Shown here: positions 3,790-41,700 of the stretch, one piece after another
Layout: each line of letters begins with the position of its first letter
Position numbering within the stretch: the stretch's first letter is position 1
DNA from: a virus
Reading direction: 5' to 3' (one strand)
UHGV virus genome: UHGV-0356033
DNA length: 45,424 nt
Notes under the pieces: generated by a model
Databases searched by the model: none
Told to the model about the DNA's origin: nothing
What the model saw: the letters and a program-made list of their open reading frames with translations, nothing else
Position numbers and translations under genes: made by a program

Positions 3790-4338
3790 TTAAATAGGAC
3801 GTTCTAAAAGGTAGTGTTCGATCAGCGTTTCCAGTTCCCGGAATAAATGCGCTGTTTGATTTACCAACGCTTTGTCTTCGTCGGACTCCGGTTTAAGGAA
3901 CACTGATTCATAAGGTTGAATTAGCGCGAGTAATTTACCCAGCTTATAAGCGGCAACCTCAGGACTGGACGTCCCAAAATAAGTGTCTAGCCATCGGTAT
4001 TCCGCCAAGTCGTTTCGTTTATTTAAAGCGTCAGGTAATGGTAGCCATTCGATTGAACTCCTGTTAATTGCTCGTTGGTATTCATTAATGAGAAATGCCA
4101 AACGTTGATAAACGAGATCAATGTTATTAATACGCAATTCGAGGAAACCGCGAAGGCTGGGACGAAAAGGTTCTTCATTTATGTTTAAAGGCAACGTAAG
4201 CAATTGTAAGCCGGTAAAGACTCTGACATAGGGGTTGTGGGTGTTCTTATGGAACTCCTGCTTCAGAGACTCTCTGAGGGCTTTTAAACGATTATTCTCT
4301 AACCGTTGTTTAAAACGAGTTATTATTCCTGTTAACAT
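3790..4338 (-). CDS. hypothetical protein (182 aa)
   Basis: ATG 4338-4336 with AGGAG SD. Confidence 0.6.
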   Translation of the reverse strand: MLTGIITRFKQRLENNRLKALRESLKQEFHKNTHNPYVRVFTGLQLLTLPLNINEEPFRPSLRGFLELRINNIDLVYQRLAFLINEYQRAINRSSIEWLPLPDALNKRNDLAEYRWLDTYFGTSSPEVAAYKLGKLLALIQPYESVFLKPESDEDKALVNQTAHLFRELETLIEHYLLERPI

Positions 4339-4409
4339 AATTCACTCCTAAAGAATGTCTCACGTAGATAATATCTGTCTGACTTCTTTTTGAAATTGAG
4401 GTAGTAAGA

Positions 4410-8394: not shown

Positions 8395-8430
8395 GTAAAA
8401 AGACTTTACTATGTAACCCTGACTTATAAT
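8395..8430 (+). promoter_or_regulatory. candidate sigma70-type promoter for gene 8444..9199
   Basis: Perfect TATAAT at 8425-8430, 14 nt upstream of ATG; -35 region is poor. Confidence 0.3.
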
Positions 8431-8443
8431 CCGAGGTTTTAGA

Positions 8444-12716: not shown

Positions 12717-13454
12717 TTAATAGCCCTGATAAATAATGTCGTCACGGTCTTTACGTAACTGGCAGTATGTTACGTCAGCACCGTTAGGGATTTGTACGCC
12801 AGCGTCTTCAAGATAAATAACACCAGTCTGATTACAGAAATAAAAAGACCACAAGTACGGATTGCCTTGACAACTGTTTTCACGATGATCGAAGGGCCAA
12901 TAGCCTCGATACAATTCGTCGTAATCACCGCGCTCGATACCAAAAGCAATCATTTCTTTTTCCCACAATCTGCTTTCGGCGTCGTAAATCGAAAACCAGA
13001 AACCGACGAGGTTCTTTGTCCGTTTAACGTTCATTAAGTCGTTATAAATGGGGTAGAGTGCTTTATTGAAACTTTCTAACATCTCTGGAGAGAGTAGAAA
13101 GTTCACGTAGTATTCTAGCCATTGATAAACGGCTTCCCAGACATCTTCAGAAGAGAAATGCTCGAATACGGCGTCATCACAATCGTAGTTATCGAAGACC
13201 CCTGAGAGATCTATTATGACGTCGCGAAGGTCAAAGTTTCGGTTGCTATTGACACCCTCAATAACTTCAGCGATGAGACGAGTAAAGACGTTTGTGCAGG
13301 CAGTCTGTGCGGTATAAAAGAATTCTCCTTGTACGGTTGACCACTTTGGGTCCTTCAAATGTTCATTGAAGTATTGTGGCCAAATTTTATAAAAGATTCC
13401 CTCGAACAACGAGGGATTGATACGTTGTAATTGAGGGACATAAACTTTTAGCAT
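12717..13454 (-). CDS. hypothetical protein (245 aa)
   Basis: ORF with ATG 13454-13452 and GGAG SD. Confidence 0.55.
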   Translation of the reverse strand: MLKVYVPQLQRINPSLFEGIFYKIWPQYFNEHLKDPKWSTVQGEFFYTAQTACTNVFTRLIAEVIEGVNSNRNFDLRDVIIDLSGVFDNYDCDDAVFEHFSSEDVWEAVYQWLEYYVNFLLSPEMLESFNKALYPIYNDLMNVKRTKNLVGFWFSIYDAESRLWEKEMIAFGIERGDYDELYRGYWPFDHRENSCQGNPYLWSFYFCNQTGVIYLEDAGVQIPNGADVTYCQLRKDRDDIIYQGY

Positions 13455-13490
13455 CTTAATAACTCCAATGGTGTTACACCTGGATAATAT

Positions 13491-14159
13491 CTATCTAAGA
13501 ATATTTTTAGCGAAAAAAGGATCGACTGTAAACTCCTTCACCTGTGAATCATAACCCGAATGTATTTGATCGCTACTGAGCAAATACCGGTCTAAGTCGT
13601 GCGGAAGAATCCAAGAATCACCTTGTTTAAAAATACCATAATCTGTTGTTCCAGAGGAAGAAATGATTTCCTCTGGAGACGAATAGATGTGGCGTAAAGC
13701 GAGATCGGACGGCTTTAACACGATTAATCGAACGGGAAGTTGACTGACTGCCTCTTTAATAAACTGGTCGCGATTAAACCAAATTATTTTTTCGGGGTAG
13801 GTTTCGAATTCAGCCCATGCCCGCGTGATAACTAATTTGGAAATCTTTTTCAACTCTTCAGAACGCTCTGCGTAGCCGATACACTCCTTGCGTACTTCAT
13901 GATTTTCTATCGATGCTGTGATTTTTTGGAATAGGTGTTGTTGGAAAAAGCCGTTCTCCGGGATATCACAACCCGCGTTGTATAGTGCAATGATCTCCCA
14001 CAACAACGAAAGAGAAAACACAAATGCTAACTTTTCCACAACTTCCCAATCTTCGGAGTAAGGGGCTTTAAAGCCCCAATACTGCCGTGCGTTATACATA
14101 AAGTGAGTTTGTAAAAACCGGGGGGCTTTTGACAAGACCTCACTATAAACGATCAGCAT
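13491..14159 (-). CDS. hypothetical protein (222 aa)
   Basis: ATG 14159-14157 overlaps stop of upstream RNase H gene. Confidence 0.55.
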   Translation of the reverse strand: MLIVYSEVLSKAPRFLQTHFMYNARQYWGFKAPYSEDWEVVEKLAFVFSLSLLWEIIALYNAGCDIPENGFFQQHLFQKITASIENHEVRKECIGYAERSEELKKISKLVITRAWAEFETYPEKIIWFNRDQFIKEAVSQLPVRLIVLKPSDLALRHIYSSPEEIISSSGTTDYGIFKQGDSWILPHDLDRYLLSSDQIHSGYDSQVKEFTVDPFFAKNILR

Positions 14160-31136: not shown

Positions 31137-31182
31137 TGAAATGCTCCTTCTGGTTATGGGGAAGTTCCCACAAATTATGAAA

Positions 31183-31554
31183 TTAAATAACTGTGTTGGG
31201 GAATGCTTTAATCTGTGTATAACTATCTCCGATACCTCTTATCATTTCCAGACGTTCTTCTGTAGAAAGGCTTTGGTTAATGTCTTTGTCGAGATTGAAC
31301 AGTGTCAAGAGTTTTGCAATTGCAACCGTCAGGTTGTCGGACAGCTCGTTGTTTTTACGCCATTCTTCGTTACGGAAAATAGAGATAAGGTCTTTCGCCT
31401 GGCCTTCAGCGTGTGGTTTGGCTAACTGCGCGTCACGCTGTTCGATAAGGTATGCTTCGTTGGTAAGTAAACGTTTCAGGTCTTCTGGGTTAGTGGCAGC
31501 GCGAGTAACGATCAGTAATACAACAAACGGGTCTTTAAATAATTCGTTTTTCAT
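31183..31554 (-). CDS. hypothetical protein (123 aa)
   Basis: ATG 31554 with AGGAGAA SD. Confidence 0.55.
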   Translation of the reverse strand: MKNELFKDPFVVLLIVTRAATNPEDLKRLLTNEAYLIEQRDAQLAKPHAEGQAKDLISIFRNEEWRKNNELSDNLTVAIAKLLTLFNLDKDINQSLSTEERLEMIRGIGDSYTQIKAFPNTVI

Positions 31555-31584
31555 CTTTAGTTCTCCTAAAATGGTTTTAGTTAA

Positions 31585-31626
31585 GTGAGAGCTTTTGTAC
31601 TCTCACCTAAGTAATATATATCTGAA
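31585..31626. promoter_or_regulatory. conserved regulatory element copy 1: stem-loop plus 19-bp motif TAAGTAATATATATCTGAA
   Basis: Stem GTGAGAG/CTCTCAC (31585-31591/31600-31606) immediately followed by motif at 31608-31626; identical 19-mer recurs at 35894-35912. Confidence 0.4.
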
Positions 31627-31644
31627 ATTATTTTTAATATTAAC

Positions 31645-31679
31645 GAACAAAAAATAAAAGGTGGGGGTTTACCCCCACC
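31645..31679 (-). terminator. intrinsic terminator downstream of gene 31684..32262
   Basis: G/C stem GTGGGGG/CCCCCAC around 31660-31679; T-run on minus strand. Confidence 0.5.
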
Positions 31680-31683
31680 GATG

Positions 31684-32262
31684 TTATACATCGAACCGGT
31701 ACTGCCGGGAGTTAATGAGGAACTCGGTATTCAGCTCAATCCATTCGAGTAAATCACCCAACGGTAATCGGTTTGGGTTTTCTAACTCAATAGACGCTAC
31801 CGGATAAGAGTTTACTAATTCCGTAATTGCCTCAATACCCTCTTGCGTTCCATCGTCTTCTAAGGTGATTGTAAACGGCATATCGGCACGATCCGCATTA
31901 GGATTGTACAAACTGACTTTCGTTGCTTGGACAAACGCAGTCAGGTCGTCACGTATAATGCGTGTATCAGGCGCTAGAACTACCCAGAGATGTTGTCCTG
32001 GCTGGAGTTTACGTTTTGCGTAGTTTAAGAACGGATTAGCCGGTAAGCTTTCTAAACCACTGCAAATGTTCCGTAAATGAATCCCTCGTGGGTCTTTATA
32101 GTCCACGCTGAAGATTCCTACCGGTTCCTTCGCTGCCTGTTTTATCAGAAAGACCAATACCGTGTCCGCTCTTTCTGGTAAGGAAAGCTCTATTCCCTCA
32201 AGCTCCCCATCGACGAGGTTTTCCAACCAAACGTCTTTTCGCATTTCTATTAATCGGTACAC
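31684..32262 (-). CDS. hypothetical protein (about 186-192 aa)
   Basis: ORF; GTG 32262 with GAGGTGG SD, or ATG 32244. Confidence 0.5.
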   Translation of the reverse strand: MYRLIEMRKDVWLENLVDGELEGIELSLPERADTVLVFLIKQAAKEPVGIFSVDYKDPRGIHLRNICSGLESLPANPFLNYAKRKLQPGQHLWVVLAPDTRIIRDDLTAFVQATKVSLYNPNADRADMPFTITLEDDGTQEGIEAITELVNSYPVASIELENPNRLPLGDLLEWIELNTEFLINSRQYRFDV

Positions 32263-32274
32263 GGTACCACCTCA

Positions 32275-33048
32275 CTATTGATTAAGTTTTACATCGGCAA
32301 TAAACAGCAATTGTTTACCATGTTGCTGCACTTCTTTCCAACCCAGTTTCATAGCAGCGTCAACAACATCTAACATGCTGTAACGGGACATCAACGCGGT
32401 TGATTTTGTTCCTGACATTAAATAAAGTGGCTCATTAGGGCAACGGTCTCGAGCATCAGGAAGTTCTCGAATAACCGCTGAGCCTTCGGGTACGGTAACA
32501 ACATGAATCACGGTAAATGGTCTCTTGTGTGTTAAGTAGATACGGAACCCAACGTGTTCAGATTCATGAAAGATTTTCTTCACGACCACATCTTTCAGTG
32601 TCGTCTGAACATCATCCCCAGGTAATATCGTGGATTCACGAGAAACGAAACAACGACTATTTTCAATCGTGGAGAAATAATTACGTATCGGCAAACTGGC
32701 GTTATGATCGCGCAGTTTTTTGCTCAATAGATCGAAGTTCAGTTCTTTAACTTTTTCTAACCACTCTTTGGCTTGTTGAATGTAATAACTACCAACAGCG
32801 CGATAAGTTAATACCTTACCTGTGCTCACTTTCCAAAGCTTGATGCTTAGTGAATTTGGCTTATAGCGACGATACTCACCCTGCGTATGGTTGATGCGCT
32901 CGTAACGCTCTACATCATCAACTGGTGCAGATTCGACCGATTGTAATTGCAGCGTACGATCTAATCTATCGGCAAATAGTAGTGATGATAGCGGGCCTTC
33001 GATCATATACGGTTCGGTTTTAAAGATATCGTCTAAATGGACTTTCAT
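32275..33048 (-). CDS. paralogue-array member A (257 aa), C-terminal GW...QLLF motif
   Basis: ATG 33048 with AAGGAA SD; C-terminus KLGWKEVQQHGKQLLFIADV; N-terminus MKVHLDDIF. Confidence 0.6.
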   Translation of the reverse strand: MKVHLDDIFKTEPYMIEGPLSSLLFADRLDRTLQLQSVESAPVDDVERYERINHTQGEYRRYKPNSLSIKLWKVSTGKVLTYRAVGSYYIQQAKEWLEKVKELNFDLLSKKLRDHNASLPIRNYFSTIENSRCFVSRESTILPGDDVQTTLKDVVVKKIFHESEHVGFRIYLTHKRPFTVIHVVTVPEGSAVIRELPDARDRCPNEPLYLMSGTKSTALMSRYSMLDVVDAAMKLGWKEVQQHGKQLLFIADVKLNQ

Positions 33049-33061
33049 TTCTATTTCCTTC

Positions 33062-33089
33062 TTAACAAAAGCCGCGACTAAAGCGCGGC
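33062..33089 (-). terminator. intrinsic terminator downstream of gene 33116..34267
   Basis: Stem GCCGCG/CGCGGC (33071-33076/33084-33089); TTTTGTT on minus strand. Confidence 0.45.
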
Positions 33090-33115
33090 AGTTAGAGAAA
33101 GTGTATTTTCACTTA

Positions 33116-34267
33116 TTAGAGGTCAGCAACAAACAACAGCTGACTGCCGTATTTTTGCACGTCAGCCCAACCGTAGTCTTTCCCGATTATAGGTAGATGT
33201 AAAGCATCCAGTTTCTCGTCTTTTGCCTTTAGTTGCGCCATTAGCGCATTGGACGCCTCGGCACTGAGCAGTAATGCGGGTTCTTTTTCAGTACGTCCTT
33301 CTGCGGTCGGGAAGAAATCGTAATAGCTGCGAGTAGGTAAATCGACAGAAAAACTACGATTGCCTATTATGATGAAGAACGCAACTCCTTCACAGTTAGC
33401 ATCTACACTACACGACCACCCCGCCTCTGTTAAAAGGTCTTTTAACAGACACCACACTTTAAGTTGGTCCTTAGAAAGTGTACGGTAGATAGCAAGATGG
33501 TCAGGAAGTAAATGTACAGCCATAACCACGTTTTCAGATTTCTCGTCAAGCAACTCTGGATGTTGAATCGGGAACAATAATTCACTGATACCCACGTTAT
33601 CAATTTTGTTAACAAAATCAGTTAATTCATCTTTTAAGGTACGCACGGATTTTTCTCCTTCGACTTCAATAATCTGGTGGGGTTCGCCGCTAATTAAAAT
33701 GTGGTAAACGATGTCGTCGGTAGAACGGTAAGTGAGTTTGATAGCTTTATCACTTAACATTTCGTAGCGGAAGAAACTTTCGTACCAACTTGAGCCGAAA
33801 TCGTTTCGTGTAAGTTCCTGCTCAACTTTGATGGTTTTTGCTTCAAAGCCAATTAACCCGCTTAATAACGCGAGTTCTGGCTTAGTTAAAATAGCCGCAC
33901 CGTGAAAGGGCACTTTCTCAAGCTGAAAACATAAATTACTGACTTTACCACTTGGGAAGACCTTAAACATAATCTTCCGGTTGCTACTCTTTTCTCTAAC
34001 AACGAGTTTACGGTAATTTAGTCCACAATTTGAGTAAACCGCGAACTGGTAACCTTCAATTTCTTCATCGTAAGTACAGACATCGACAGGCGCGATAATC
34101 TCATCGTATTCACTAAGTACACAGCAGCCCAAGTTATAACCAAACAACTCGCGTTGTAATGAAGACTCGATGGTTAAGCTTGGTAGTGACCAAACCCGAT
34201 TATAGCATCTGTCCATCAATTCTTTTAGGATTTTGACATGTCCTGGTTTAGAAATAATATTTCGCAT
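33116..34267 (-). CDS. paralogue-array member B (383 aa), C-terminal GW...QLLF motif
   Basis: ATG 34267 with AAGGAGAG SD; C-terminus KDYGWADVQKYGSQLLFVADL. Confidence 0.6.
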   Translation of the reverse strand: MRNIISKPGHVKILKELMDRCYNRVWSLPSLTIESSLQRELFGYNLGCCVLSEYDEIIAPVDVCTYDEEIEGYQFAVYSNCGLNYRKLVVREKSSNRKIMFKVFPSGKVSNLCFQLEKVPFHGAAILTKPELALLSGLIGFEAKTIKVEQELTRNDFGSSWYESFFRYEMLSDKAIKLTYRSTDDIVYHILISGEPHQIIEVEGEKSVRTLKDELTDFVNKIDNVGISELLFPIQHPELLDEKSENVVMAVHLLPDHLAIYRTLSKDQLKVWCLLKDLLTEAGWSCSVDANCEGVAFFIIIGNRSFSVDLPTRSYYDFFPTAEGRTEKEPALLLSAEASNALMAQLKAKDEKLDALHLPIIGKDYGWADVQKYGSQLLFVADL

Positions 34268-34296
34268 TTTTACTCTCCTTTAGGGTTTTTCGTTAC

Positions 34297-34851
34297 TTAA
34301 GCAGGGTAAGCTAAGAACAACAACTGCTGGCCGAGTTTACGTACGGTATACCAACCGTGGGCTTTAGCGACCGCGATCAACGTTTCCCAGTCGTCAACAT
34401 CGCACTGCTCATTCCGAAGTCTTGTAAAGAGCGCCTCGGCTTCGCTTTGGTTTAATAACTTACCTGGATCGTCTGGGGTGCAATCAGTAGGGGTTGGAAA
34501 GAAAGCATACTGCCGCGCTAGGAGAAAATCGACCAGATACTTGGTGCTCTCTTTATAAACCAGCGTGGAAGTCTTCCCTTCGTGGAAGAAGCTACCTGTT
34601 TTCCAAACGCTATCTTTCAGTAAGCTCTGAAAGTAATCTGTAAAACCCGTTCTAAACGGGATATGGGTTTTACGTGTGATGTTGCGACGCAGCGGAGTTT
34701 CCTCTACAGCTTGTACACTTACCCCTACTATCATCGCACCTGGCTGAATAATGGTATTGGTCAGTACAGTATAAGGACGGACAAAGAAATGTTCGCCTAC
34801 GCCTTTTTCAAGGGTTTGGATAATTTCATTTTTCAGTTCAGTTTGAAACAT
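34297..34851 (-). CDS. paralogue-array member C (184 aa), C-terminal GW...QLLF motif
   Basis: ATG 34851 with AAGGAGAA SD; C-terminus KAHGWYTVRKLGQQLLFLAYPA. Confidence 0.6.
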   Translation of the reverse strand: MFQTELKNEIIQTLEKGVGEHFFVRPYTVLTNTIIQPGAMIVGVSVQAVEETPLRRNITRKTHIPFRTGFTDYFQSLLKDSVWKTGSFFHEGKTSTLVYKESTKYLVDFLLARQYAFFPTPTDCTPDDPGKLLNQSEAEALFTRLRNEQCDVDDWETLIAVAKAHGWYTVRKLGQQLLFLAYPA

Positions 34852-34880
34852 GGTATATTCTCCTTTTTCGGTTTTCTTAA

Positions 34881-35618
34881 TTACGCGGTTTTAATTAGCA
34901 GCAGATAGTCTTTCGTAATCTCAGCACAACTCCACCCTCTCATCGTGGCGATTTTACGAAGATCGATTTTCTCGTGATATCTCAATAAGGGATCGTCCGG
35001 GTTAATTTCAACCAGGTGGGTGGCTTTAGAAATCGTTTCTACATCAGGGATCTGTTTTGCTAAGTCTGATGCAATCAGTTCAATAACGCGGTATCCATTT
35101 AATACAGAAACATAAATGCGTAAACCATATAGCGTGCCCTCGTCTTCTAATGGACAAAGATCGATGCCAGGTCCAAGCAGTGATAACTCGACGTTATCGG
35201 GAAGGTTTTCTGCATTTCGGAGTAACCCTATCCCATTTCTAAACAGAGGGAAGTAAGAGAATAGTGGTGGTAAAGCCCAACCGTTCCCAATAAGCACATC
35301 AGCGATACTAGTAGGTGTGTTCGCAAGAAGACGAATGTGGTCAGCCACAACTTCAAGTTCGGCGTCACTGATCAACTTATAGATTAACATGACACTGGTT
35401 TCGGTATTAATAACAAAGAAGACGCGGTTGGCGTAACTACCTATCGTGTATTCGTCAATCATACGGTCGATAACGTCACTGTCTGGATAATCTTCAGGTT
35501 TAATTGTTCCGGCGTCGATTAACTTAGCAGGTTGCGATTGTTTTATTAGTTCGTTAACCACCGTAGAAGAAAGTTCTAAACTGGTGTTAGTAAAGATATC
35601 GTCTAATAATTCTCTCAT
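34881..35618 (-). CDS. paralogue-array member D (245 aa), divergent C-terminal motif
   Basis: ATG 35618; N-terminus MRELLDDIF matches member A; C-terminus RGWSCAEITKDYLLLIKTA is a degenerate version of the motif. Confidence 0.5.
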   Translation of the reverse strand: MRELLDDIFTNTSLELSSTVVNELIKQSQPAKLIDAGTIKPEDYPDSDVIDRMIDEYTIGSYANRVFFVINTETSVMLIYKLISDAELEVVADHIRLLANTPTSIADVLIGNGWALPPLFSYFPLFRNGIGLLRNAENLPDNVELSLLGPGIDLCPLEDEGTLYGLRIYVSVLNGYRVIELIASDLAKQIPDVETISKATHLVEINPDDPLLRYHEKIDLRKIATMRGWSCAEITKDYLLLIKTA

Positions 35619-35714
35619 GATTTACTCGCTAATCCCAATGAAGGGAAGGCTATTATTATGGATTGTAAAAGAGGTATAAGGAAGTCACTACGTTCCTCTG
35701 GGAAGAGTATGTCG

Positions 35715-35773
35715 GTATACTCCGTATACCTCCGCTATTTATATCCGTATACATAATGCCCCCTACCCCCTAC
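35715..35773. repeat. three TC(C/G)GTATAC palindrome-containing repeats plus tandem CCCCTAC x2
   Basis: GTATAC at 35715-35720, 35724-35729 and 35747-35752; CCCCTAC at 35760-35766 and 35767-35773; inside a 320-bp divergent intergenic region. Confidence 0.5.
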
Positions 35774-35860
35774 CGGTATCCCGAGTAGCAGAATAAAGGG
35801 GCAGACTGTAAAATTTTAGTAACCTTTAACGAAAGGTACTAAAAGGATAACGTGCCCGTA

Positions 35861-35912
35861 GGGACTGAACTGGTACTTCAGTCCCTATTCACTTAAGTAA
35901 TATATATCTGAA
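35861..35912. promoter_or_regulatory. conserved regulatory element copy 2: stem-loop plus 19-bp motif, 28 bp upstream of gene 35940
   Basis: Stem GGGACTGAA/TTCAGTCCC (35861-35869/35877-35885) followed by TTCACT then TAAGTAATATATATCTGAA at 35894-35912. Confidence 0.45.
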
Positions 35913-35939
35913 TTCAATTCCGATCTAAGGAACGTCCCG

Positions 35940-36905
35940 ATGGAGAAATCCAGTGTTGATTTTTTCTCAATTGGTATCGTCGCGGAAGACAAACCCCGTG
36001 GTACAGATCGGGTAAAAGTGATACCAATTGAAACCAACTTTGCTAACCCTACCGTGGTGCAATCTGTTTCTTCAGCAACTGAAAAGACACACGAAACATC
36101 TGGTGCAACAGATAACCTAACCATTAAGACGGGAAACACGATAACGGCAAAGTGGTGGAAGTTTAACTCCAACCGAATTAATTCCCCTGACGTTAAACGA
36201 GAAGACTACGTTATCTTGTTACGTTTGGGGAAAACCGATATTTATTTTTGGATTGATCTGAACTTCGCTAACGTTAAGCGATTAGAAGATGCGGTTTATG
36301 CGTGGTCGGCTGACCCTGAAAACCAAATGGCGGATGACCTGTCGAACGCGTATGTGTTGAATGTCTCGACAATTGACAAACATATCACGCTAAGAACAAG
36401 TATGGTAAACGGCGAGAAAGCGGCGTGGTTGTTTCAGTTTGATAATGCAAACGGTACGTGGCAGTGTGTTGACCATAAAGGAAACAAGTATTACATTAAC
36501 TCGGTGGAAGACGATTTAGGTTTTGAGAATGCGATGCTTTCAAAAGTGAACATCAACAAAGAAGATGCGTTCATTTATTCAAAGCGTTCTATTAACCTGG
36601 AAACGAAAACGATTAATGAAAAATGTGAAGTCCGCAATACAGAAGCAGCGAAATCCGTTACGTTTAAAACACAAACCTGGTTAACGGAAGCGGGAAGTTC
36701 GACAACGTTTAAAACGCCGAACTTTAAACAAGAAGGGAAGGAAGCGATGTTCACCGGTAATTTGGAAGTCGCTAAGAACTTCAAATACGGTGGTACGGGT
36801 GAAGGTGTGGGTGTCTTTACGGTTAAAGATGCCATTATTTCCGGTATTACCTTTAGCGTTCACATTCACCAAGGTAAACATGGCCCGACATCACCTCCGC
36901 AGTAA
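35940..36905 (+). CDS. hypothetical protein (321 aa), possibly virion or tail associated
   Basis: ATG 35940 with AAGGAA SD; sits at head of rightward tail-fibre region; beta-rich T/N/K composition; function not recognised. Confidence 0.55.
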   Translation: MEKSSVDFFSIGIVAEDKPRGTDRVKVIPIETNFANPTVVQSVSSATEKTHETSGATDNLTIKTGNTITAKWWKFNSNRINSPDVKREDYVILLRLGKTDIYFWIDLNFANVKRLEDAVYAWSADPENQMADDLSNAYVLNVSTIDKHITLRTSMVNGEKAAWLFQFDNANGTWQCVDHKGNKYYINSVEDDLGFENAMLSKVNINKEDAFIYSKRSINLETKTINEKCEVRNTEAAKSVTFKTQTWLTEAGSSTTFKTPNFKQEGKEAMFTGNLEVAKNFKYGGTGEGVGVFTVKDAIISGITFSVHIHQGKHGPTSPPQ

Positions 36906-38636: not shown

Positions 38637-38704
38637 AGCTCTTTTCCTCTATAGATTCAAGTCATAGTATGAACTTCGACGCCCACGGACTATAGGAGTA
38701 GAGA

Positions 38705-41700
38705 ATGGCTGTCGTCCTAGACCCACACTTCAAAAAACCGGGGAATAAAATAACCGGTGAAGCGGTCGCCGTCATTGGTACGAAATACCGAATGTTGGTA
38801 CCTGCCCACGCCCCTTTTTTCACCACATCCCTGGTGGTCAAGAGCGGCGGCAAAACACTGACTTTAGGCGACGATTACGTTATTACGCACCCGTACGAGA
38901 CCGGTATGTTGCGCACAGCCTATCTCATTCACGGGATGATTTGGATTGTTAATGACAAATACAAATCGAATTTTACGGTAGATTACCACGCCGTTGGTTG
39001 TGGTCAGGCTACCCAACAACAGATTACCGCAGAACGCGAACTCAATAAAGATAAATACCCGTCTGCGTGTCAGTGGGACACCGTCATCGGAGACGTTTAC
39101 TTTCCACCGGTCGATATCCAGTTCGATTGGGAGAATTGGAAAGGTGAACTGGAATTAATGCAGGCTATTGCTGGATTAGGCGATTCGTTAGGGGAAGTCG
39201 TGAGTCGGCTTAACCCCATCGCACGCAATACCCTGGATTTAGAATACCGTGCTAATAGCAAGGTTATCACTTCCGAGCAGTATGCCGTATACGACAATAA
39301 AGGTGGCTTCACCTACAACACTGCCCGTCATCGTTATAGCTTGAGTTATAAAACTGCAACCTTTAACGACTACGCCCTGTCAGTGAAACACAGAATTCCT
39401 GCTATTCTGCCAGACATGACGAAATTGAATCCAAACGAACAGATCGATTGGATGCTCTGTTATGCTAACGGCGGTGCAAGTATTCTACGGCTGCAGCTAA
39501 AACAGCGCAAAATCTCACTGGTCTTAACGGTCGCTATTGGTAGCGGTTCAACAAACTACGATTATACGTTAATCAACGGTTTAACTGACGATGAGTTAAA
39601 AAACGATATCGATTTTAGTGTAACCCGTCAACCCGGAAACGGTGTTTACGTCATCGTAGTAAAAACAAATAAACAGACCATGGATTACACATTCAATGTC
39701 GATACGCCGCCTGATGAGTTCTCGGCAGGGTATTCGAAAACGGATGTTGCTAAATGGTTGAAGTTTAAAACGAACATTAATTTAAACTGGTATGCGGCCG
39801 AAAACGATTATATTCAAATTCGTTCTTTACCCGGCGCACCAGAACCTGACATCGATAACGATGTTTACCAGTTAATAGTCAAATACCATCAGTTAGTTGA
39901 GCAGCTGTATCGTAACGCGCCTGCACACGAACACGTTACACGTAAGGACAACCCGCACACCGATACGTGGGGTCCGATCCGTGCGTTAGAGCTGAATGGT
40001 ATTGCGACAGATGCCGCGTTAGCTTACGGGAAGACGAAACAGCAGTTAACGGATTATGTTAATGCTAAGTACCCAACACAAGCAACGTTAACCGCACAGA
40101 AAAAACTGCTTCGTGAATCGCCGAGCAAGAACGTTAACGGCACGATTACCACACTTCCGGGTTTTACTTCGTTCACGACGGAAGTTGATCCGGTCTCGAT
40201 GTCGAAATACGTGAGTCCTTATTTTAGCGAAAGCTATGTTAGTAGTGGTCGCAGATATCACGGCGCGCTTCGTTATACAGGAGCGAAAAGCGGTTTCAGT
40301 GCTAACTTTAATGCAGTGCCTGCCAACCTGCAAGATATTGACTTTATTGTTACTGGACGTAAAACAGCGTCTGGTAATGAAGCGGTCGGTAGGGTTGGTT
40401 TACGTTTCTACGAAAATCCTGGTAGTAACTCCGGTAAGTACGTAGAGATTACCGGTGAAGTCTGGTCCGGTACTCTTACTATCGAACTGGCGTTGCACGG
40501 TTACGGTAGTCCGGTACCGGCAGTTCGGTATATTTCACAAGCTCCTAACCCGGCAATACCGGATGGGGATTTTACGCTACGTTTTCAACTGAAGCGTACA
40601 GGGAATGTGTTTGACGTCGTTATTACCGTAAACAGTAAAACGTATAGCGGTAGGATTAACTTCAATAACATGGACGTTGCGTTAGAAGCATTAGAGAATC
40701 AGCACCACTTTAAATCGCTGATCAATAATGTTGCCGACGCCGTTACCATTAGTTCGCAAAACAAAGGTAACACGGTTACCATTAAGAAAGCACCGGATGT
40801 TGTTGACGAGACACGTTTAGGTGCCCAGTTTGTTGTTGATCCGAAATCCATCAAGTTTATTGGCCAAGGTTCAACTGATGTTAACGTGGGTAACAACCCC
40901 GTAACGTTCCAAGCAGGTACTAACCAGCTTGTGCTATACCCCGATGACCGAGGATTGTTGTGGCGTGGTAAAAAACTCTTAGACCCCACCACCGTAGCCC
41001 CGTATCTGCCAGGCAATACCGCAGGTGGCACAGGTTTATTCTACGCAAGTTCGACAACAACGGTTACGATCACCGGTAGCGGGATAAAAGCCTCGCCGTT
41101 CGTAGCGACCTTTATTCTTCCTACCGCGACCGATACAACAGCTCTGGCAGCTTGGCAGTTGACCGATGAGTTCGGTACCGCTGAAAACCTTGCAGCAACG
41201 CCAGCACTGATTGAAAAACTCGATGCGGAGTTCACCGGTAAGTTAGTTGCAGTTAAATCGTACATTAACGACATGCAACTTACCAGCTCGGTTACTATCG
41301 ATAAGATTACCTTTGGTTTAGGTAACGTTGCGAATACGCCTGATGTCGATTTACCGATTTCTACAGCACAACGTGCGGAGTTAGATAAATACTCGCCTAA
41401 AGTTCACCAACACCCGTTTACCGCTTTTGGTACAGGGAACGCAACCACAGCGAAACGCGGTCTGATTAAATTTGGTCTGGATGTGGATGATGCGACTTTA
41501 GCACTCGATGGGAGTGTGGTAATGGCGCAGACTTCCCAGATTGAAAAATTGGAGCGCGCTGTCAGCGGTGTTGACTCGGAGGCACGTCTTGATATTATAC
41601 GTTTTGGTGAGTCTGGTAACGACTTAATAGACGTTACGGTCAAAGACAAAATTCTGGTCACGCTTCCAGCTTCAACGTATTTTATCGGTGGTGAAACATA

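Follow-up and report, generated by a model that had tools for sequence, protein, structure and literature searches.

A repeated element of viral genome UHGV-0356033 as a probable leftward promoter of a giant phage, with a hairpin at the predicted start of its transcript

Within UHGV-0356033, a viral genome stretch of 45,424 nucleotides (nt; the whole stretch is called the window here), one 19-mer, TAAGTAATATATATCTGAA, is present twice exactly on the plus strand, at 31608-31626 (copy 1) and 35894-35912 (copy 2), and the question raised by this repeat is what it does and which genes it serves. The chance expectation for such matches is 0.01, none of 100 dinucleotide shuffles reached two, and no third match occurs in the window even when three mismatches are allowed. 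A first reading of the sequence (the original prediction) had noted that 24 of 25 positions are shared once the preceding tcacC/tcacT is included, that a stem-loop of different sequence adjoins each copy, that copy 2 lies 28 nt from the ATG at 35940 (plus strand) and copy 1 about 50 nt from the ATG at 31554 (minus strand), and that neither copy fits a canonical sigma-70 promoter. All of this is borne out: the sequence agrees, both stem-loops fold well beyond shuffled controls, and a scan for -35/-10 hexamers (at least 9 of 12 matches, spacing 16-18 nt) detects nothing of sigma-70 type at the two copies, whichever strand is read.

We consider it quite probable, by analogy with promoters mapped in related phages, that both copies are minus-strand promoters for the multisubunit RNA polymerase of a phiKZ-like giant phage, an enzyme most likely packaged in the virion and acting early, which would recognise an extended element reaching from -34 to +2. 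Among the functions originally offered, the phage-specific promoter with a 5' hairpin is the one now favoured; a regulator-binding site and an RNA-processing signal are unsupported.

Polarity, family and consensus of the element

The orientation of the element can be read from relatives. The 40 bp at 31600-31639 are 100% identical to a non-syntenic, unannotated spacer in the Erwinia jumbo phages phiEaH2 and Stratton (90% in Asesino), and in the Erwinia phages this stretch lies between two genes that are both on the strand opposite to the one read in the original prediction. The minus-strand reading is tttCAGATATATATTAC-TTAgGT-GAGAG; on the gene strand of the Erwinia phages the order is tttcAGATATATATTACTTA-gGTGAGAG, then a hairpin, about 25 nt, AGGAG and ATG. 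Both window copies carry the GATATATATTAC reading on the minus strand. Since in most copies from relatives the gene follows on the GATATATATTAC strand, both copies most likely drive leftward transcription. The earlier layout, in which the copies served genes on opposite strands and copy 2 belonged to the rightward baseplate gene, did not survive this comparison: the element is polar, both copies read leftward, and copy 2 points away from that gene.

A 16-mer scan of the IMG/VR database returned 119 loci, many of them unrelated coding matches, and on contigs of 125-246 kb the layout of promoter, hairpin, ribosome-binding site and gene is found 2-4 times per contig. A relaxed pattern gave 45 distinct copies, of which four were dropped for having no promoter context, leaving 41. 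In 33 of the 41, a ribosome-binding site, a start codon and an open reading frame (ORF) of at least 50 codons follow within 150 nt on the motif strand, and the median leader in the family is 52 nt. Eight copies have such a gene in the opposite direction, behind the motif, and copy 2 with its two homologues accounts for three of these. Seven sites of this kind (class A, our label for the promoter element of copies 1 and 2) occur in the complete phiEaH2 genome, all on the plus strand and each 67-123 nt before an annotated plus-strand coding sequence.

Many of the relatives' copies (e.g. L001, L018, L090, L092, L125) also have a leader in which the hairpin is followed by TAATCGAC(C/T)ATTAA(C/T)CTAAAGGAGTATT before the ATG, and copy 1 carries a diverged form of this sequence (CACTTAACTAAAACCATTTTAGGAG). 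The common leader suggests that a promoter-leader unit of roughly 90 nt is conserved whole while the genes behind it differ. A tRNA downstream of one related copy (L084) was a first impression that proved wrong, as ARAGORN finds none there. On two short, apparently unrelated contigs, L121 (three sites) and L017, the same 16-mer is the right half of a near-perfect palindrome, TAGTAATATATATCTCACTnTAAGTGAGAGATATATATTACTTA, spaced at about 1-1.3 kb, and two of the four sites have an in-frame ATG about 45 nt downstream. Another phage group may here be using the same core in a promoter or operator system.

As aligned, the conserved element is twice the length of the 19-mer. The extended consensus, from about -34 to +2, is A-T-T..A...T.TCA-GATATATATTAC-TTAnGT-GA. 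Among the positions left free by the search pattern, A-19 and A+2 are found in all 41 copies, and A-34, T-32, A-29, T-23, T-21 and C-20 in 32-38 of them; C-20, A-19, G-18, C-7, T-5, A-4, G+1 and A+2 are invariant or nearly so and are irrelevant to sigma-70. According to a review, the early operons of every phage of this kind are preceded by an AT-rich conserved motif, about 10 nt long and centred near -10 (PMC7598289), and the early promoters of phiKZ and 201phi2-1 are conserved at -10, -20 and -30, with which conservation from -34 to +2 agrees. Intergenic TATATTAC directly follows terminators in the small-gene region of phiKZ.

The closest match is to phage AR9, whose early consensus AAATATATATTAT-(6N)-G+1 was mapped by differential RNA sequencing and primer extension and is insensitive to chloramphenicol (PMC5312081). 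The class A sequence AGATATATATTAC-(TTAGGT or TTAAGT)-G agrees with it at 11 of 13 core positions, with identical spacing and the same G. This G stands six nt past the core in all copies that were found by the 16-mer only and have promoter context, and hairpins tend to begin at it. By the AR9 rule (PMC5312081), initiation would occur at the G six bases past TATTAC (31604 in copy 1, 35890 in copy 2), and numbered from this G the 19-mer spans -4 to -22 of each promoter:

31603..31638, minus strand: promoter copy 1 (class A), -34 to +2, predicted start G 31604; exact motif, 40-bp identity, 41-copy consensus
35889..35924, minus strand: promoter copy 2 (class A), -34 to +2, predicted start G 35890; exact motif

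The motif string and SPN3US early-expression data gave no match in a literature search that did not cover all of the clade's promoter papers, and no transcript map was found in the literature for the SPN3US/Erskinevirus branch. The kind of element is already known for this phage group.

The lineage of the window gives this match its context. On sequence similarity, the source is a nucleus-forming, phiKZ-like giant phage related to the Erwinia Erskinevirus phages and to Salmonella phage SPN3US. Megablast found no close phage record. The rightward 321-amino-acid (aa) protein is a baseplate protein, 73% identical to its Erskinevirus homologues and 62% to that of SPN3US, and by tblastn the window is collinear, in reverse, with phiEaH2 77-120 kb. 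This full tblastn map was used to set synteny, since the small flanking genes, once considered as possible homologues among the window, phiEaH2 and SPN3US, are unrelated by pairwise BLASTP. Closer relatives are present in IMG/VR: L060 (96.4% identical over 13.9 kb), L054 (92%) and L022 (78%). No polymerase genes lie within the 45-kb window; four beta-like RNA polymerase genes are annotated in its syntenic relative phiEaH2. All phages of the group are described as transcribing their early genes with a virion polymerase and their later ones with a non-virion enzyme (PMC7598289, PMC5312081, PMC13282480) and as independent of the host enzyme in transcription (PMC7598289, PMC13282480); the SPN3US virion polymerase has been described (PMC7598289). 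Rfam searches (gathering-score and E-value modes) gave no gathering-score hit in the window and chance-level hits only in 31500-36000, and a tRNA scan of the window found no tRNA.

A hairpin in the first bases of the predicted transcript

Hairpins are enriched at the predicted start throughout the family. Over 45 copies, the segment from +1 to +32 folds with a mean z of -2.57 (67% below -1.64), compared with -0.25 (12%) for random segments of the same loci, and pairing starts at the predicted +1 in 23 of the 45, compared with 33 of 200 random segments. Our own inspection of the folds counts at least 15 distinct stem sequences, with loops of roughly 3-15 nt, so it is the structure that is kept and not the sequence. 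The nascent RNA would fold immediately into a terminal or near-terminal 5' hairpin, whose presence would be selected while its sequence is free. The two window copies have the following hairpins:

31585..31606, minus strand: hairpin at the predicted 5' end of the copy-1 RNA; inverted repeat and fold
35859..35887, minus strand: copy-2 hairpin, stem 11 bp, covering +4 to +32 of the predicted RNA; inverted repeat, 100% complementary

The copy-1 arms are GTGAGAG (31585-31591) and CTCTCAC (31600-31606), and the RNA hairpin is GAGAGU-ACAAAA-GCUCUC, from 31604 down to 31587; taken as RNA from the predicted start, it folds at a free energy (dG) of -8.3 kcal/mol (z -4.45, none of 200 shuffles as good). 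The copy-2 arms are TAGGGACTGAA (35859-35869) and TTCAGTCCCTA (35877-35887), with a dG of -17.3 kcal/mol (z -4.14, again none of 200 shuffles as good), and the hairpin is identical in the two relatives that share copy 2 (L053 and L060). Given the orientation of copy 2, its hairpin can be the 5' end of a transcript for leftward RNA only.

A reach of the copy-1 stem into the promoter, as a DNA cruciform or an earlier start would have it, was examined and rejected, because stem extension into -8 to -1 shows no clear enrichment (mean 4.3 paired bases, compared with 3.6 in controls). That the hairpin is a terminator is unlikely, as it has no U-tract and a separate terminator precedes copy 1.

A promoter-like sister motif, class B, lacks the hairpin. 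It reads GATAGATATTATCTA-NNNN-TG, has a palindromic core (TAGATAtTATCTA), and occurs at least ten times before same-strand genes in phiEaH2 and twice in the window:

13481-13495, minus strand: class B site GATAGATATTATCCA, TG at class A spacing
4365-4379, minus strand: class B site GACAGATATTATCTA, TG at class A spacing

The predicted leaders of these two sites are about 24 nt (genes 13454..12717 and 4338..3790), and those of most class B copies about 24-35 nt. Hairpins are not enriched in class B (mean z -0.41), which makes the hairpin specific to class A. The degradation of mRNA by RNase E can depend on the 5' end, and the leaders of E. coli ompA and T7 gene 10 are 5'-terminal stem-loops that stabilise their messages. 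By analogy with these, our best guess is that the class A hairpin would act as a 5'-terminal protective stem-loop against 5'-end-dependent decay of early mRNA.

The two loci and their transcription units

Copy 1 shows all of the family features, with a leader of 50 nt against the family median of 52 nt. The remaining features of its locus are as follows:

31555..31584, minus strand: remaining copy-1 leader, with AGGAG at 31563-31567, 8 nt ahead of the ATG at 31554 (sequence read)
31183..31554, minus strand: first gene downstream of copy 1, 123 aa (ORF list); sole hit phrog_27024, of unknown function
31649..31679, minus strand: intrinsic terminator of the upstream leftward operon, GGTGGGGGTAAACCCCCACC then TTTTATTTTTT (terminator scan)

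This terminator (31679-31660 plus the T-run) ends 10 nt before promoter copy 1, and copy 1 is followed on the plus strand only by a terminator and by a leftward gene's 3' end. On this layout copy 1 most likely drives gene 31554..31183, at the head of its operon, starting it afresh after the upstream terminator. The 123-aa product has no significant Pfam family, and for the genes downstream of both copies Pfam and PHROG searches gave no function.

The original prediction had proposed, as a test that could refute it, that the motif be sought at homologous positions of related phages, and the outcome is mixed, with copy 1 kept and copy 2 mostly absent. The position of copy 1 is kept in contigs of 96%, 92% and 78% identity and in the same syntenic interval of phiEaH2, where a class A site stands at 87451 among unrelated neighbouring genes. 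In the contigs of 92% (L054) and 78% (L022) identity the promoter is kept, and 31150-31598 (449 bp), which holds the hairpin, the leader and the 123-aa gene, is replaced by about 32 nt, with one breakpoint near promoter position +6. Elsewhere in L030 and L070, a different gene is preceded by the hairpin and leader of copy 1 (72-79 nt, 95-97% identical). In this comparison of sequences, it looks like a cassette insertion or deletion at the copy-1 promoter.

Copy 2 is kept in the two closest relatives only (IMG/VR L053 and L060; an A-to-T change at -11 is tolerated in L060), which suggests a recent gain. It retains A-34, T-33, A-29, T-22, T-21, C-20 and A-19 of the consensus, and in its upstream half it shares bases with the 5' leader of the rightward baseplate gene. 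Beyond its hairpin the locus contains two further features:

35799..35857, minus strand: further copy-2 leader structure, a helix GGGCA/UGCCC (35853-35857 with 35799-35803) around a hairpin at 35814-35844, then CUUUAUUCU
34881..35618, minus strand: first ORF after copy 2, beginning 272 nt from the predicted start and coding for 245 aa (ORF list); no PHROG or Pfam hit

The leader folds well from +1 to +111 (dG -34.4, z -4.19), and in L060 the outer helix is GGACA/UGUCC, a two-sided change that preserves the pair; folding thus suggests that the 35799..35857 region may belong to a structured leader or small RNA of about 95 nt. It would appear that copy 2, directed away from the baseplate gene, most likely yields a structured leader of about 270 nt, and its transcription may read on into 35618..34881. 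In L053, which is 95% identical, an insertion of about 105 nt separates the two leader hairpins, just past the first one (L053 ~480-590, homologous to window ~35845-35855) and contains GGGGAG-N7-ATG with a very short ORF of nine codons (25 with a one-base shift in an A-run).

The spacer of nine more distant phages (phiEaH2, Asesino, SPN3US, STsAS, Proteus phage 7, pEa_SNUABM_29, pEa_SNUABM_4, pEa_SNUABM_6 and ChrisDB) was examined and is without copy 2. These phages instead have CGTAAAAAAG...TA(G/A)TATGA just before the ribosome-binding site of the baseplate gene, a sequence that looks like the phiKZ-type late TATG signal. No late-type TATG motif occurs within 110 nt of the window baseplate gene at 35940 (35830-35939, plus strand). 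Elsewhere in the window, TAGTATGA at 38665-38672 (plus strand), 40 nt before the gene at 38705 for a 1440-aa virion protein, resembles the phiKZ late TATG, and a TATG before gene 8444 (8400-8443, plus strand) is likewise similar. A baseplate mRNA that began further upstream would have a leader to which the leftward RNA from copy 2 is antisense.

The same divergent spacer before the baseplate gene holds another conserved element, at 35705-35770 (plus-strand coordinates; no working strand is assigned), which is common to Erskinevirus, Seoulvirus and Machinavirus phages. It consists of (T/G)ATGTCGG, a 6-7 bp hairpin (arms 35714-35720 with 35724-35730), CCTCCGCT and CCCCCTACCCCC (35759-35770), and the window lineage has TATG where relatives have GATG. 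Over eight sequences, 97.9% of cells are paired and four of six pairs are changed on both sides, which none of 500 shuffles reaches. The element has no Rfam match; it could mark where late transcripts start, with a 5' hairpin of its own. It was also compared with the published small RNA upstream of phiKZ gp182, and identity was rejected (gp182 has 664 aa and a 55-bp spacer, and is a different locus).

Rival readings and known systems

Several points weigh against reading the copies as early promoters of a virion polymerase. The search pattern fixed the core, so core conservation is partly circular, and the family-wide hairpin statistics were computed against mononucleotide shuffles. phiKZ and AR9 have 28-41 early promoters, compared with seven class A sites in the 243-kb phiEaH2 genome; with so few class A sites, and class B at least as frequent, either class could be the early one. 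The start site, the polymerase and the timing are inferred by analogy with AR9, phiKZ and phiR1-37. Copy 2 is atypical, with no gene within 150 nt downstream and a divergent gene 28 nt behind it, and it is missing from the spacer of more distant relatives. The element also accommodates a TTGATT-N17-TATATT reading in some relatives, where the host polymerase might be used.

The question of timing leads to an alternative that keeps the leftward phage promoter and makes class A a middle promoter (for the non-virion or a modified virion polymerase) and class B the early one, or the reverse. The shared core, spacing and TG at -1/+1 of the two classes are consistent with it, as are the small number of class A sites per genome and the resemblance of the phiKZ middle motif AAAATTACC to the ATTTTACC class A variants of phiEaH2. 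We nevertheless regard it as unlikely: published early promoters are "well-conserved extended", AT-rich, centred at -10 and conserved at -20/-30, a description that class A fits best (PMC7598289), whereas the middle and late motifs of phiKZ are short and weak, the AR9 late motif is a short AACA-(6N)-TA/G (PMC7598289, PMC5312081), and the 11/13 match is with the AR9 early consensus. A leftward host sigma-70 early promoter with additional conserved flanks, in the fashion of T4-type phages, would account for the TATATT within the AT-rich core and for the TTGATT that lies 17 nt upstream in some relatives (e.g. phiEaH2 38279), and T4-type early cassettes likewise pair a promoter with a stem-loop before ORFans. 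It is very unlikely at the window copies, where the scan finds no sigma-70-type site and there is no usable -35; positions that sigma-70 would ignore are invariant or nearly so, and the group is described as independent of the host enzyme.

There remains the original layout of an element that is rightward or independent of orientation, with copy 2 as promoter, regulator site or processing site of the plus-strand baseplate gene. The nearness of copy 2 to the ATG at 35940, the palindromic (AT)n core and the lack of an adjacent late-type TATG motif at this baseplate gene, unlike in relatives, speak for it, but the flanks are not palindromic and polarity is constant over 41 copies, the plus strand downstream of copy 1 leads only into the terminator and gene end noted above, the motif is lacking at the baseplate gene of the nine more distant relatives, and an RNA-processing site would require transcription through the terminator preceding copy 1; this layout is hardly credible.

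With both copies taken as leftward phage promoters, annotation of the window would gain the direction and boundaries of two transcription units, and the spacer before the baseplate gene would hold a leftward promoter and not that gene's own. The enterobacterial SPN3US/Erskinevirus branch gains a sharply defined -34 to +2 consensus, and the hairpin in the first bases is a feature absent from the sister class B. The copy-1 indel gives a hint of the way in which small accessory genes are exchanged among these phages. Both the hairpin and this indel beside the promoter are modestly new leads. Early transcription takes place inside a membrane vesicle, and how mRNA leaves it is listed as an open question (PMC13282480), for which a 5' structure shared by one promoter class is a cheap lead. 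A bolder proposal, which we find doubtful, is that class A promoter, 5' hairpin and leader would form a mobile regulatory cassette of nucleus-forming phages, a counterpart of the T4 PeSL cassettes running on the phages' own polymerase, in which recombination between copies swaps ORFans and the hairpin marks the fate of early transcripts (stability, vesicle export).

Among known systems, AR9 (PMC5312081) shares the 11/13 core, the 6-nt spacer and the G, a promoter repeated before early-type small genes of unknown function, and sites that can occupy divergent spacers, back to back with late virion genes. Unlike in AR9, the last core T is C here, the flank is conserved further upstream (to -34), there are fewer copies per genome, and the genome contains thymine; the start hairpin is selected here, and the AR9 paper (PMC5312081) does not use the word "hairpin". 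The AR9 promoter was mapped, whereas this one is known from sequence alone. Like the early promoters of phiKZ and 201phi2-1 (PMC8244752, PMC11512511, PMC10914365), the element has an AT-rich extended -10 with conserved -20/-30 and stands before hypothetical genes, often right after a terminator, as does TATATTAC in phiKZ early-region spacers; phiKZ too makes short structured RNAs from 5' leaders. The flanking consensus differs from that of phiKZ, which has 28-32 copies and whose sites, as viewed, are without an obvious start hairpin.

The T4-type PeSL cassettes (PMC2839356, PMC4122927) likewise place a conserved early promoter and a stem-loop before ORFans, at the borders of indels that distinguish close relatives, and one and the same module turns up ahead of different genes, as the copy-1 hairpin and leader do in L030 and L070. 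PeSL promoters have a sigma-70 consensus, however, and their stem-loops terminate upstream transcription, whereas here the promoter is not of sigma-70 type, the upstream terminator is separate and the hairpin has no U-tract; recombination between copies is hypothetical here. Phage N4 (PMC4496689) also pairs a virion-delivered polymerase, which we infer for the window phage, with a promoter associated with an inverted repeat. The N4 hairpin is GC-rich DNA centred at -11, upstream of the start, and is itself recognised, by a single-subunit enzyme; the hairpin described here lies downstream of an AT-rich core, at +1 or +4, and varies in sequence. It resembles the leaders of ompA and T7 gene 10, where the stem stands at the first nucleotide or a few bases from it and its sequence is free, and the class A hairpin would presumably share their stabilising role.

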